A stretch of 5,655 nucleotides of DNA from a virus (IMGVR_UViG_2802429221_000003:1-5655); one strand, 5' to 3'; positions 1 to 5,655 are shown, counted from the first letter of the stretch. Notes: a model not told the origin generated them from the letters alone. Made by a program: numbers and translations.

Positions 1-117
1 ACCTATCACGTCAATAAGAATATCATCCTGCATCGACTCGTCATCATAATAGCCAATACTCTCCATAAAGGCCGAAAAGTCGGCCCTGTCGGCAAATTTG
101 AGTGTTAAATCTTTCAT
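1..117 (-). CDS. Hypothetical protein, N-terminal 39 codons only; translationally coupled to stf; not recognisable as lambda Tfa
   Basis: The ATG at 117..115 overlaps the stf stop by one base (TAATG). The frame is open to the window edge and translates as MKDLTLKFADRADFSAFMESIGYYDDESMQDDILIDVIG. It occupies the position where lambda has tfa, but the sequence does not match the Tfa N-terminus as I recall it ([20 protein letters not shown]...). Confidence 0.5.
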   Translation of the reverse strand, partial: MKDLTLKFADRADFSAFMESIGYYDDESMQDDILIDVIG

Positions 118-2330
118 TAGATTGACTCCCCCATCTGGGCATCAGTCAATGCCTTGTGCCAAATACGCAGATTTCGAACGTGTCCAAATAGGTGACGGTT
201 GCCGGATGATGATTGACCACCAATATTAATGAAACCTCCTGTATATTTGTGTTTTTTATAAGGAGAAACTGCCTTAGCACCAATATTACCGTTAACCACA
301 ACACACAACTCTCGACTTTCTGTGAATCTAAAGCCGATAATGCATTTTCTCTCTGGTCGTTCTACAACACTTTTATATTCTGTTTTAGTGCCTTTACCAT
401 TTGTAATGATTGCGCGTGCTCCCAACGATGTATATCCCAAATACATATAACTTTCATCTGCAATTTCAGTTGTATCTCCCGTAGTGGAAATATTAAGAAT
501 ACGTGCGCTACCTTCTTTGTTTGGCGATTCATCCCAATTGGTATTAACTTCTGCTAATGAACTAATAGCGGGATTGCACCAGTTTAGAGAAATGGGGACC
601 GTTACAATATCGCTGGCGCGTGTTACAGGGGATGCGCCTGTTATAATAAACGATGAAGCGCACGCCCCACCTTCAACTTGAGGGGTCGCAATATAAATAT
701 AATCATCCGCGCCAGTGCCCACTCCTTTTGCCGGGGTATACTGAACCATTCCACCTATCATATTTTCTGTATCAAGTGCCTTAATTGTCGCCTCAAAAAA
801 GATCCATTTGCTTGCTTCATCTTTAACAGCCCTAGCAGTAATGCGATTAGCGGCCACCCCCGTCTTATCAATAGATAAATCTGTCGTATTTAAGTAAGCG
901 TCACCTAAGAATGTGTAGGTAGAACCATCATAGTTTTCAAATCGTAATCGACATCTTAAATTTGGAGTGCCACTTTGCACTCTGCATGATACGGTTACAT
1001 ACTTTTCTCCGCCTGTTACGTCAAAACCTTTACTGCCAGAAACGGTTACTATGTTAATCGATGAAGTTTGCCCTACCATTTCTGGTTTTAATGTAAATTT
1101 TGCGTACTGGAATCCGAAATCATCTACACCTGATGCACTTAAGATCATATTTGACGACTTGTTCCATTTAGTCGGATTGGTTGAATTGATTAGCAGGTTA
1201 GTTCTCTGCCCTTCAATAAGCAGGCCGTTGCGTTCAAATCGTGCTTCATCGATTGCAGCCTCTGTCAGCATCCCCGCCTTATTAATATAGGTTGCTTTCG
1301 ACGCTCGTTTAAATTTAACAACCTTATCGCTAGGCATTGTTATTTCATCATCACCAATAACAATCTTTTTATATGATGGCGAAAAGCCCGCAATCATATC
1401 CAGTGAATCGTTAAACGGTATCCACACATCAGGCAGCGGCTGTAAGACATATTTATACGGCTCTGCTGCCTGGCTTGCATACTCTCTGGCTGCGTCTTCA
1501 CTTGCTTTAGCTGCCGTCTGGCTTGCTGCCGATGCTTTCGCTGAGTTCGCAGCCGCTGTTTCGCTCGCCTGTGCGTTGGTTTCACTGGTTTTTGCTGCTT
1601 TTTGGCTGTTGGCTGATGCAGTGGCAGAAGTAGCCGCCGCACTTGCAGAACCAGCTGCGGCACTCTCGCTTTCGGCTGCTGCATCCTGACTGCTTTTCGC
1701 CGCAGTTTCGCTGGCTTTGGCATTCGTTTCGCTGGTCTTCGCTGCCGTCTGGCTGGACTTTGCGTTGGTTTCGCTCGTCTTTGCTGCTGTCTCGCTGTTT
1801 TTCGCGTTGGTTTCTGATTTTTTGGCTGCTGTCGCGGAGTTTGCCGATGCAGTCTGTGAGGCCGCTGCCGCCTGGGCGCTGTTAGCTGCATTCGTTTCTG
1901 AGCTTTTCGCCGCGTTCTTCGATGATGCCGCAGCCGTTTCGGATTTCTTTGCCGCCGCTGCGCTCTGAGAGGCGGCTTCGGCGTTGCGTGCCGCTTCTTC
2001 CACCATTTCCTCAAAACGACGCAATGCCTCCGGCATGACATCATCTTCCGTCATGGCACCGAGAAAATCATTCAGCGTACCTGGTCTGGAGCCTTCATAG
2101 ACGGTAATGGTCCCGGCATGTGAAGGCGGAAAACCTTCAACCAGCAGGATGACGCTGTACTGGCCATACTCAACATCCATGCTGTAACGCCCGGCTTCAT
2201 CCGGATTTTCTGAGGCCAGCGTGTTCACCACCACCGTGGTGCTGTTACGTTTTGCTTTCAGCTGGATTGTGCAGTTCTGTACCGGTTTACCTGCACCGTC
2301 TTTCAGTACACCTGAAATCTTTACTGCCAT
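117..2330 (-). CDS. stf: Side tail fiber protein, mosaic: lambda Stf-like N-terminal domain, heptad-repeat shaft, non-lambda distal domain
   Basis: Long minus-strand ORF with TAA at 119..117. The first ~100 residues (MAVKISGVLKDGAGKPVQNCTIQLKAKRNSTTVVVNT...YSMDVEYGQYSVIL...GFPPSHAGTITVYE...) match the lambda Stf N-terminus. I place the start at the ATG 2330..2328 (MAVKIS, preceded by GGGGTG) rather than the GTG at 2336 used by the track. Residues ~120-292 are Ala/Ser/Thr-rich heptad repeats. The C-terminal ~445 residues sit in low-GC DNA and lack the His-rich GAHAH-type motifs of the lambda fiber tip. Confidence 0.85.
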   Translation of the reverse strand: MAVKISGVLKDGAGKPVQNCTIQLKAKRNSTTVVVNTLASENPDEAGRYSMDVEYGQYSVILLVEGFPPSHAGTITVYEGSRPGTLNDFLGAMTEDDVMPEALRRFEEMVEEAARNAEAASQSAAAAKKSETAAASSKNAAKSSETNAANSAQAAAASQTASANSATAAKKSETNAKNSETAAKTSETNAKSSQTAAKTSETNAKASETAAKSSQDAAAESESAAAGSASAAATSATASANSQKAAKTSETNAQASETAAANSAKASAASQTAAKASEDAAREYASQAAEPYKYVLQPLPDVWIPFNDSLDMIAGFSPSYKKIVIGDDEITMPSDKVVKFKRASKATYINKAGMLTEAAIDEARFERNGLLIEGQRTNLLINSTNPTKWNKSSNMILSASGVDDFGFQYAKFTLKPEMVGQTSSINIVTVSGSKGFDVTGGEKYVTVSCRVQSGTPNLRCRLRFENYDGSTYTFLGDAYLNTTDLSIDKTGVAANRITARAVKDEASKWIFFEATIKALDTENMIGGMVQYTPAKGVGTGADDYIYIATPQVEGGACASSFIITGASPVTRASDIVTVPISLNWCNPAISSLAEVNTNWDESPNKEGSARILNISTTGDTTEIADESYMYLGYTSLGARAIITNGKGTKTEYKSVVERPERKCIIGFRFTESRELCVVVNGNIGAKAVSPYKKHKYTGGFINIGGQSSSGNRHLFGHVRNLRIWHKALTDAQMGESI
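1461..1979 (-). repeat. In-frame tandem array of ~22 degenerate 21-bp units encoding heptad repeats (consensus roughly K-x-S-E-T-N/A-A) within stf
   Basis: Translation shows consecutive 7-residue units (KKSETAA, KSSETNA, KNSETAA, KTSETNA, KSSQTAA, KASETAA ...). The plus strand shows the corresponding periodic gct/gcc-rich 21-nt units (e.g. ...tttcgctggtcttcgctgccg...). Confidence 0.8.
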
Positions 2331-2341
2331 ATTCACCCCAC

Positions 2342-2368
2342 AAAAAAGCCCGCCTGAACCGGCGGGCT
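2342..2368 (-). terminator. Intrinsic-terminator-like hairpin plus T-run downstream of lom, immediately before the stf ribosome-binding site
   Basis: Minus strand reads AGCCCGCC-GGTTCA-GGCGGGCT followed by TTTTTTGTGGGG: an 8-bp perfect GC-rich stem, a 6-nt loop and a 6-T run. It lies 27 nt after the lom stop and ends ~11 nt before the stf ATG. Confidence 0.6.
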
Positions 2369-2394
2369 GTCATAACACTGTGTTACCTGGCTAA

Positions 2395-2994
2395 TCAGAA
2401 TTTATAACCGACACCCACGATGAAACCGTCAGTGCGCCAGTCACCACTGCCGGAACCTTCATAAGCAATATCAATGGCCAAGGATTCGGTCGGGTTAAAC
2501 TGCACGCCAGCCCCCCACGCCAGAGACGTGTTGCTGTGGCGACCGTCATCACTTCCGGTCAGCACATCGTGCGTTTTCTCCTTGTTGTCAGTTACGCGGA
2601 GGTAATCCCCGGAAAAAGTCGACACACGGCTGTAAGCCATACCCGCCATCGCATACGCGCTGAACCATTCATTCACGCGCACAGACGGCCCCGCCATCAC
2701 GCTGAACCAGCGGTTACGCACGGAATCTTCATGCCAGCGGGTATCGCTGTAACGGGTAAGCTGGCGATTCTTGTCTCCTGCATAGCTGAATGACGTCACC
2801 ATCCCCAGTGTGTCCGTAAACTCATAACGGTATTTCACGTTAATCCCGTTCAGATCATCGCTGCCGGGAACGTTGGTCCGGGCATGAAGATACCCCGCGC
2901 TCAGCGTGGACTGATGTTCAGACGCCCATGCAGGCACACCGGATACGGCCAGACAAATGGCTGCGGACAAAATGGCGGCATAAAGTTTACGCAT
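2395..2994 (-). CDS. lom: Lom outer membrane protein (Ail/Lom/OmpX/PagC family 8-stranded beta-barrel); lysogenic-conversion 'moron' gene
   Basis: ATG at 2994..2992 ([24 protein letters not shown], a signal peptide ending in AWA) with an SD 4 nt upstream. The ~199-aa product ends in ...GVGYKF, the terminal aromatic residue typical of OMP beta-barrels. It is near-identical to lambda Lom as I recall it. The track's ORF start at 3033 is a 13-codon upstream extension (MTPFFIAEKREVL) that runs through the terminator hairpin and is unlikely to be real. Confidence 0.9.
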
Positions 2995-2998
2995 AAGT

Positions 2999-3004
2999 AC
3001 CTCT
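2999..3004 (-). promoter_or_regulatory. Shine-Dalgarno sequence for lom
   Basis: Minus strand GAGAGG, 4 nt upstream of the lom ATG at 2994..2992. Confidence 0.5.
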
Positions 3005-3018
3005 CGCTTTTCTGCGAT

Positions 3019-3043
3019 AAAAAAAGGCGTCATTTCTGACGCC
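3019..3043 (-). terminator. Intrinsic-terminator-like hairpin plus T-run just downstream of J and upstream of the lom ribosome-binding site
   Basis: Minus strand reads GGCGTCA-GAAA-TGACGCC followed by TTTTTTT: a 7-bp GC-rich stem, a GNRA-type tetraloop and a 7-T run. It lies between the J stop (3062) and the lom start (2994). Confidence 0.55.
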
Positions 3044-3061
3044 CGTTCTGGGTTATAAAAT

Positions 3062-5655
3062 TCAGCTGATACTGATACCTGCTGTGGATTTCTTCATCAC
3101 CACAACCAGCAGATCACTGATACTGGTTGTTGGTGTCCAGTCATTCGCTCCTGATGAAGATACGGTGAATGTCAGTGTCAGCGTCCCCTGTCCGGCAGGC
3201 ATATCTATAACCGAGGAAAATACGCCCTGAGCATCCGTCGTGGACTGATTAAAAATCTCCTGACCATTGCGGGTCACTCTTAACCGGCAGGTTGAATACC
3301 AGTATGACTGTTGGTTATTACTGTTGAAATTCTCATGCTTACCACCACGGAACAACACTGGCGGTATCATGACCTGCCGATCAAATTTCTGATCATCACT
3401 GATTCTTACCGTGATGGTGCCGCTGGCATAAGTGCTCGTGCGGGGGAAAGACTTGCTGACCGTTTTGACAATATCGCCTTCAATCTGGTTGGCTGACAGT
3501 CTCCCCTTAATCTGACAGTTCTCATTTATCGTGACGTTGTTGAGCGTCCCGGAGTTCGCATTCACGTTACCGCTGATATCAGCATTTCTCGCCGTCAGCC
3601 GCCCGTCCGGTGTCAGGGAAAATGCCGGAGGATTACCGCCGCTGGTAATGGTGGGAGCCGTCAGATATTTCAGGAACACTTCGTTCATGAATATCTGATC
3701 GCCCTGACCAACAAACATCGGCTTTGTGTTGCCATTCGCAGGATTAATCATCGCAATCCTGTCTGCCGCCAGCAGCACCTGACTCTGCATTCCTGCTGGC
3801 GTATTCTCAATACCGGCACCGATGCCCGCGATATAAAGGCGTCCGTCCTGCACCTGCTGCATCTTCACAGCCCACATGCTGTTCAGGTTATTATTTGTAT
3901 CAACCTGAACCTTCTGTATCTGCTGGATTGCCGCACTCTGGTCTTCCAGTTTCTTATTGACAGTCTGCGTGATTTCATTGCTGACATCCGTAATGGACGT
4001 CCTGATTTCAGTCAGGTCAGGCGCAAGCTGACCGTTATCAATTTGCGTCCACAGCTCCTGAGCCAGATGGGTTTTCCCTATCTCTCCTTTGAAAAAATCC
4101 AGATAGCCGGAAGCATCATCACTCGGCTGACCAACAGCCTCCACGAATGCCGATTTGCCAACGGTGTTCACACTGCGAACGTAAAAATAATAATCATGGC
4201 CCGGCCTGATATTGATACTGGCAGCTATCCAGTACAGCGCCGTGCCAAGATAGCGGGCTGTGGTTTCAACCTGCCTGATATCCGCAATCCGTTTTTCCGA
4301 GAACCAGAACTCAAACTGTACCGTCGGGTCATAAACCGCAAGATGCGGCGTGGCGGTTATCTGAAAATAGCCCGGTGTCAGCTCAATCCGAGACGGCGCT
4401 GCCGGTGCGGCAATCCGGAACGATACCGATGCCGGATCGCCCTGCTGTCCCCACGCATTTACCGCCCGGACTGTCAGCCTGTAGTTCCCCAGCGCCAGCT
4501 GCCTGAAGCGGTATGTGGTTTCCGCCGTCCGGGCCGTGCTGACCAGCCGCTCACTGCCGTCATCCGCTGCCACGGTCAGGCGAAGCAGGAAACTCACGCC
4601 CTTCACCACCTTCGGCGTGTCCCAGCGGGCCAGTACCTGATACTCCCCGCTGTCTGCGGTGACTTCGGCAGTCAGGTGCTGCACCGCTGGCGGCGTGACA
4701 CCATTCACCGTGCCGCTCTGGTCGCCGTCAAAGTGCGCCCCGTTATCCACGATGGCTTTTTTTTCCGGTACATGCTGCACGGCAGTGATGGCATACGTGC
4801 CGTCATCGTTCTCACGGATACTCACACAGCGGAACAGGCGCTGGCGCAACGTCGGCAACTTCAGCCCCCACACGCTGTATTCTGCAACGCCGTCAGGAAC
4901 ACGGCTCACTTTTACCTTCACGCCGTCGGTGACGGACTGGACCTCCACGCTGACCGGATTGCCACTTCCGTCAACCAGGCTTATCAGCGTGGTACCGGAG
5001 GATGGCAGCGTGATTTCACGGTCGAGCGTCAGCGTCCGGGTCTGGCTGTTCACCGCCAGCACGCGCCCGCCGGTGCTGATCCCCGCATAGTCATCATCAC
5101 AGATTTCAATGACATCACCCGGTACATGGCGAAGCCCTTCTGCGCCCACGCTGAAGTCCACGGTCTGCGTTTCCAGCAGCTCCGTTTTAATCAGCCACAG
5201 CCCGGCGCGGTGTGCCTGTCCCCGGCTGGTACAGCCAAAGGCATCCATCTTCGTGACGTTACGACCGTAACGGGCAATGGCCTGCGTGTCCTCCACAAGC
5301 TCTGTTGCCGTTTCCCAGCCGTTATCCGGGTCAATCCAGTTCACCTCAACGGCATTATGGCGGTCCTTCAGGGCGCTGAAGCTGTAGCGGAACGGCGCGC
5401 CATCATCCGGCATCACCACATTACTGCGGTTATAGGTCCACACCTTATCCGACGGTCGGTCCTGCACGAACGTCAGCGTCAGCCCGTTCCATACCGGCAT
5501 ACAGCGCATCGCCGAGCAGAAATCGCTGAGCACATCCCACGCCTTACGCTGTGTGGTCAGCCAGGCATTACAGGTGATGCGCGGCTCCGTGCCACCAAAA
5601 CCGTCCGGCACCGACTGGTCGCAATTCTGGCCGATGACATACAGCGCCCATTTGT
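3062..5655 (-). CDS. J: Central tail fiber / host specificity protein J, C-terminal ~860 codons; 5' end lies beyond the window
   Basis: Open minus-strand frame from the window edge to a TGA at 3064..3062; it stays open upstream of the track's start (codon 5611..5609 is GTG, preceded in frame by ...[14 protein letters not shown]). The translation ([27 protein letters not shown]..., FN3-like segments, ...[20 protein letters not shown]...) matches lambda gpJ as I recall it. The last ~150 residues look diverged. Gene order J-lom-stf is that of lambda. Confidence 0.9.

Follow-up and report, generated by a model that had tools for sequence, protein, structure and literature searches.

A lambda-like tail-tip gene J whose receptor-binding module is assigned by sequence to the A8, OmpC-binding class

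Phage lambda attaches through the C-terminal receptor-binding domain (RBD) of its tail-tip protein gpJ. In the scheme described for lambda, loops of the RBD enter the porin, the domains spread, the shaft flips, and the tip opens; loops of OmpC clash with lambda's open RBD (PMC11101478). The closest described system to the locus reported here is A8, the gpJ C-terminus of a natural E. coli prophage; Brödel et al. (Nature 2024, PMC11338833) joined it to lambda gpJ at residue 964. The A8 chimera and a second one, 1A2, use OmpC in place of LamB (PMC11338833). In MG1655 delta-ompC delta-lamB supplied with OmpC of MG1655 (K-12), A8 reached 95.2% of cells, as compared with 1.9% for wild-type lambda and 2% for 1A2 (PMC11338833 source data). 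Delivery by A8 into MG1655 delta-lamB delta-ompC requires that ompC be supplied, and the wild-type gpJ of lambda fails even then (PMC11338833). When 23 natural OmpC variants were compared in the delta-ompC delta-lamB background, A8 delivery exceeded 90% for 19 (PMC11338833); it was partial on OmpC G55 (77%), G67 (62%), and G56 (46%) and failed on G40 (7%) (PMC11338833). Delivery by A8 is therefore independent of LamB and dependent on the OmpC variant that is present.

Two PDB entries, both released on 2026-01-28, hold the A8 protein itself: 9WCA, titled "Closed state of A8 gpJ 713 central tail fiber", and 9WCB, titled [quoted passage not shown]. The latter contains three chains of OmpC (outer membrane porin C) beside A8 gpJ. 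A literature search found no paper describing either entry. Taken together, the delivery data and the 9WCB complex establish that A8-class tips have OmpC as their receptor. For this class, the literature or the PDB already covers the switch of receptor, the point of exchange, and the complex with the receptor, and the value of the present analysis lies mainly in annotation; it advances no open question. A 2026 receptor-prediction preprint deals with GpJ tips of the Drexlerviridae type, to which it states that the lambda tip is non-homologous.

We analyzed a 5,655-nucleotide stretch of viral DNA (IMGVR_UViG_2802429221_000003:1-5655), referred to below as the window. Its three large ORFs, all on the minus strand, encode J, a Lom-like protein, and a side-tail-fibre-like protein, Stf (Table 1). 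The J-lom-stf order is that of lambda, YYZ-2008, PhiR70_1, and BP-4795; the tail-assembly gene I, which would precede J, lies outside the window. The J ORF was listed as 3062..5611 (-), with the stop codon at 3062..3064 (-), and the reading frame is still open as far as 5653. The alignment to lambda begins at residue 298, which places some 297 N-terminal codons past the window end. Throughout its 863 codons in the window J is uninterrupted, and the RBD carries neither a frameshift nor a stop.

Table 1. Features of the window, with strand and the evidence for each.
Feature	Coordinates	Strand	Evidence
Tail-tip / host-specificity protein J gene, partial	3062..5653	-	863 codons plus stop; ORF list, frame extension, alignment to lambda gpJ
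Lambda-like J body (part of hub domain and two FNIII/Ig-like domains)	4156..5653	-	90-99% nt and 90-100% aa identity to lambda per block
Diverged block A: alpha-helical shaft and top of beta-prism fibre, long form	~3728..4087	-	J residues ~523-642; alignment, nt identity
Conserved island (lower beta-prism)	3539..3727	-	44/50 aa identical to lambda (~920-975); kept in all ten J aligned
J receptor-binding module (neck and Ig-like RBD), putative A8/OmpC class	3065..3538	-	Identity to A8, PF12421, low identity to lambda
Lom (Ail/Lom outer-membrane beta-barrel)	2395..3033	-	PF06316, 396.9 bits, from ORF residue 14
Side tail fibre (Stf-like)	117..2336	-	PF08400, 227.6 bits, residues 3-133

Alignment to lambda gpJ (J02459) with MAFFT, with identity counted in 50-residue blocks, gave 45-50 matches of 50 in every block from residue 298 to residue 797, i.e., 90-100% at the amino acid level. 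Pfam places Phage-tail_3 at J residues 33-201, Ig_J at 313-417, and Ig_J_second at 419-521; along the whole of J the families run PF13550, PF24421, PF24489, PF09327, and PF12421, each exceeding its cut-off. This is the domain order of a lambda-type J (hub, two FNIII/Ig-like domains, tail-tip fibre, C-terminal RBD), the N-terminal 297 residues being outside the window. The J of the window belongs to the lambda J family. The initial annotation described the visible J product as near-identical to lambda gpJ apart from its end. That description holds from the window end down to about position 4150; beyond it, a second diverged block lies upstream of the tip, at ~3728..4087.

The tip itself departs strongly from lambda. 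Its last 152 residues are 42.9% identical to lambda J by tblastn, in line with the earlier claim that about 150 residues are heavily substituted, and the comparison with lambda J that had been proposed as a check thus gave 43% over the last 150 residues, well short of the more than 90% that would have contradicted it. Block by block over lambda residues 970-1132, the counts are 28/50, 19/50, 20/50, and 9/18. A fall in identity from more than 90% to 43% within one ORF is far beyond chance. The architecture is nonetheless retained, as was first proposed: PF12421 (Tip attachment protein J, C-terminal receptor binding domain) matches J residues 740-863 (window 3065..3436) over profile positions 16-135 of 135, scoring 124.8 bits where the cut-off is 26.2. 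A LamB-binding RBD of the lambda type would be recognized by high identity to lambda residues ~975-1132, among them the loops that enter LamB; the window tip instead shows the 42.9% given above together with indels in all four of the stretches that are hypervariable among J proteins. It belongs to the PF12421 RBD family and is not a lambda-type LamB tip.

Base composition changes along the same gene. GC content is 0.481 over 3062..3520 and 0.599 over 4156..5653, confirming that the tip DNA is less GC-rich than the upstream part of J; lambda's own tip stands at 0.549. The position first given for this change, 3520, needs correction. The drop in GC already begins at ~4150, and the boundary of the tip module falls some 30 nt upstream of 3520, at ~3553 (lambda residues ~964-975).

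The closest characterized relative of the tip is A8. A phmmer search with distal J returned "A8 gpJ 713" (9WCA/9WCB) as the top PDB match (E 2.4e-171), and between the fusion point and the C-terminus the window agrees with it at 157 of 161 residues (97.5%). Identity over the swapped module is thus near-complete, and the next class, 4A7, is 80% identical. The DNA listing headed "GpJ A8" in the supplement of PMC11338833 also aligns with the window up to the stop codon. We note that the A8 and 1A2 supplement DNA was machine-read from a PDF, in which bases were dropped or confused, and the clean comparison was taken from the PDB sequence; two further apparent differences from A8, a Q-to-E change and an S-to-stop change, proved against that sequence to be OCR errors. 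A single-sequence AlphaFold2 model of window 3062-3745 had a mean pLDDT of 48.5, and the Foldseek PDB search run with it was used for titles, dates, and sequence identity, with TM-scores disregarded. By sequence, then, the window tip falls in the A8 OmpC-binding class. The initial annotation had suggested that the substituted tip altered receptor specificity and had named the closest characterized homologue as one deciding comparison; that homologue is the gpJ of A8, an OmpC user and not a LamB user, and the suggestion gains support accordingly from similarity to A8, which predicts a change of receptor.

The four differences from A8 are R/K, S/N, T/S, and D/N. The R/K change is in the neck (IKGRLSAN), the ST/NS pair is in PRT-ST-Y, and the D/N change is in GAN-D-W. 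Natural alleles carry three of the four residues: PRTSTY occurs in YYZ-2008 and, together with GANDW, in E. coli W2-5, whose RBD differs from that of the window by R-to-K and A-to-V alone. The Arg of IKGRLSAN was absent from every other J examined, and exact 34-36-mers carrying the window-specific Asp and Arg variants had zero matches in species-representative genomes. When ten J proteins are aligned, substitutions and indels cluster in four hypervariable stretches, with ST/NS in the first and D/N in the fourth. We infer that these stretches correspond to the receptor-contact loops L1-L4; since the texts of PMC11101478 and PMC12617516 do not give residue numbers for the lambda loops, the placing of the substitutions in L1-L4 stays at that level. 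With ST/NS and D/N in putative contact loops, an altered preference among OmpC variants is therefore possible.

Upstream of the tip, the diverged shaft block (lambda residues ~820-911) has a 28-29-residue insertion and 17-59% nt identity to lambda, against 91-98% to PhiR70_1 and 93-98% to VT1-Sakai. The alpha-helical shaft of lambda includes residues 841-861 (PMC11101478). A counterpart of the inserted residues was found in no solved gpJ chain of the PDB. Among the ten J proteins aligned, the short form of the shaft occurs in lambda, 4A7, PhiR49_1, and Fels-1 and the long form in the window, YYZ-2008, PhiR70_1, BP-4795, VT1-Sakai, and 1720a-02; shaft form and tip class sort independently. Between the shaft block and the tip lies the conserved island, where modules have recombined in nature and where the engineered fusion was also made (lambda residue 964).

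The relatives of the window illustrate how these modules are exchanged. PhiR70_1 resembles the window DNA across the whole of J (91-100% nt). Lambda, 4A7, and PhiR49_1 have the J body in common with it, while the J of YYZ-2008 is 56-91% identical in nucleotides upstream and 97-99% from ~3553 on, so that only the RBD is common to both. VT1-Sakai shares only the shaft block and the island (92-98% nt, ~4353 to ~3554), after which its tip diverges. The best phage record for the whole window reaches 91.5% over 78%, and the best complete E. coli genome, JNEC-KY178 (NZ_AP045174.1), 94.7% over 95%. The gpJ of KY178 (locus 4754..8233) has a similar body and is 91% identical in amino acids overall, but it bears a tip of the VT1-Sakai/1A2 class; lom and stf are also similar, stf being annotated as a pseudogene. 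KY178 is a natural example of tip exchange on one backbone. That the VT1-Sakai-type tip is the donor class of 1A2 follows from exact 6-mers of the translated 1A2 listing, which cover 157 of the last 170 residues of VT1-Sakai J. Given the module patterns of YYZ-2008, VT1-Sakai, and KY178, phages in nature therefore switch modules at the point chosen for the engineered fusion. We found no literature on the closest natural phages, PhiR70_1, PhiR46_1, PhiR49_1, Chlobot, and IdasGreatGrand.

In the Stx1 prophage VT1-Sakai (AP000400.1, locus 484..3956), the annotation divides J into two overlapping truncated CDSs ("truncated protein by a mutation"), so that J is disrupted in at least one well-known carrier of a 1A2-class tip.

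The tip allele of the window is widespread. Its DNA (the last 459 nt of J) is 97-98% identical to that of YYZ-2008, CP-1639, 2H10, PhiR70_1, and many Stx1a- and Stx2a-converting phages, which gives the tip class its relevance. A search of 5,426 complete E. coli genomes returned 1,504 records at 95-99% nt identity, more than a quarter. Lambda's own tip was found in 98 of the 5,426, all at 99% identity or above, and the top matches are the laboratory strains K-12, B, and DE3. The textbook lambda tip is thus the atypical case in E. coli and the "divergent" allele the usual one, which reverses the novelty that the initial annotation implied for this tip. For this prophage, host range would be better predicted from OmpC and the targets of the side fibres than from LamB. 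We also considered whether the low GC content marks a recent foreign acquisition peculiar to this element; this was ruled out, as the 1,504 E. coli records carry this same low-GC allele at 95-99% identity.

The neighboring genes complete the picture of a lambdoid tail-fibre region. The true lom start is probably an internal ATG at ~2994, giving a protein of 199 aa (MRKLYAAIL..., signal-peptide-like); a lom of 600 nt occupies the same position in YYZ-2008, PhiR70_1, and BP-4795. Likewise, the ATG of MAVKISG is the probable start of stf, in place of the listed ORF start (2331..2336). The Stf protein has a prophage tail-fibre N-terminal domain and an Ala/Ser/Thr-rich shaft encoded by 21/42-nt tandem repeats (1624-1814), followed by a low-GC tip domain (0.38-0.45) that makes up the C-terminal ~437 aa (117..1430, -) and whose best match in the phage collection is 70% identical in amino acids (IdasGreatGrand). 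This domain is also 35-66% identical to lateral tail fibres of the BASEL phages KurtStettler, IrisVonRoten, KarlJaspers, and JeffSchatz, and it shows weak matches to the Rhodobacter GTA head spike fibre (6TB9, E 2.8e-4) and, below the cut-off, to Pfam Laminin_G_3. A 216-aa ORF rich in Arg, Gln, and Lys (1394..2044, -) overlaps stf in another frame across the tandem repeats, where the AT skew reaches -0.66 to -0.71; the ORF is most likely a by-product of repeat composition and not a gene.

Taken as a whole, the data make it highly probable that window 3062..~3553 (-) is an exchangeable gpJ receptor-binding module of the A8 class that would recognize OmpC and not LamB, would act through a lambda-like trigger, and would have been acquired by recombination at the conserved island. 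On the lambda model, three J chains would make up the central tail fibre, and their three C-terminal Ig-like domains would place the distal loops on the extracellular face of the trimeric porin OmpC. Binding of the porin would splay the Ig-like domains into the "open state", and the conformational change would then move up the beta-prism to the helical shaft, which would flip so that the tail tip opens for DNA ejection. The closed and the OmpC-bound open states of A8 indicate, by analogy, that a lambda-like scheme may operate with OmpC. Homologous recombination at the adjacent upstream island (lambda residues ~920-975) is presumably how the module entered the J gene. The sequence class and the mosaic junctions are shown directly, as are the OmpC dependence, the LamB independence, and the OmpC complex of the A8 allele; the reading further supposes that the allele with its four substitutions would behave as A8 does, that the prophage would be functional, and that its trigger would be that of lambda.

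Three other readings were weighed against this one, and the first keeps OmpC as the receptor. The four substitutions could alter the spectrum of OmpC variants accepted, as a product of fine-scale co-evolution with the polymorphic OmpC loops of the host. A8 and 1A2 do accept sharply different OmpC variants, A8 itself is weak or fails on 4 of the 23, the S/N, T/S, and D/N changes are in the hypervariable stretches that may form the contact loops, and natural alleles are polymorphic at exactly those positions; the substitutions are, however, conservative (R/K included), and A8 is broadly tolerant, with 19 of the 23 variants above 90% delivery, so we consider such a shift rather unlikely. The compound version, in which the neck Arg and the loop Ser-Thr and Asp change the OmpC range relative to A8 and the long shaft in addition alters fibre reach or trigger, appears quite improbable. 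If it held, the J of natural A8-class phages would act unlike the engineered lambda-A8 chimera.

A second reading would have the tip use, alone or additionally, a receptor other than OmpC, such as a LamB variant, OmpF, FhuA, or another outer-membrane protein. J tips with several receptors exist, as the J of Gifsy-1 binds OmpC, OmpX, and BtuB (PMC12312913), and a few point mutations give lambda J the use of OmpF (discussed in PMC11101478). The Gifsy-1 C-terminus is, however, only 18% identical to that of lambda (PMC12312913), and the Fels-1 tip, from the Salmonella J included in our comparison, has 45% identity to that of the window, whereas the window tip is 97.5% identical to an OmpC-dependent allele solved with OmpC; we regard another receptor as scarcely credible. 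The remaining reading sees J as a relic of a defective prophage, its tip without current function and its divergence inherited mosaicism. Many EHEC lambdoid prophages are defective, the mutation-split J of VT1-Sakai and the stf pseudogene of KY178 are examples among the relatives, and the window shows part of the prophage only. Within the window, on the other side, J, lom, and stf are all uninterrupted, and the intact RBD is a nearly exact match to a functional allele, which makes a relic very unlikely; relic status would in any case leave what the tip binds unchanged. We thus retain an OmpC-directed module of the A8 class as the preferred reading.

Compared with the known J systems, the window J is closest to A8 gpJ, which it resembles in the conserved junction, in the Pfam family of the RBD, and at 157 of 161 residues. 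Wherever the window departs from A8 in these residues, at four positions, the J tail of PhiR70_1 has the A8 residue. The A8 chimera has the short shaft of lambda, whereas the J of the window has the long helical shaft, as do natural A8-class phages. Lambda gpJ (8XCJ/8XCK, PMC11101478) belongs to the same family, with the same domain order and PF12421 fold family, and its trimeric fibre binds a trimeric porin; the closed-to-open trigger is presumably common to both. The two differ in that the receptor of lambda is LamB and that of the A8 class OmpC, with the indels in all four hypervariable stretches. The 1A2/VT1-Sakai class likewise uses OmpC (of the EDL933 type only) and is a natural J tip of lambdoid phages; it shares the long shaft and the island with the window at 92-98% nt. 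Its tip is ~58% identical in amino acids over the last 152 residues, and its OmpC-variant range is narrower than that of A8 and different from it, with none delivered through K-12 OmpC. The J of Gifsy-1 (Salmonella, PMC12312913) is also lambda-like, with a diverged C-terminus that switches to OmpC and whose irreversible binding triggers ejection. It represents a C-terminal class far more distant than that of the window, and binding to several receptors is a feature of Gifsy-1.
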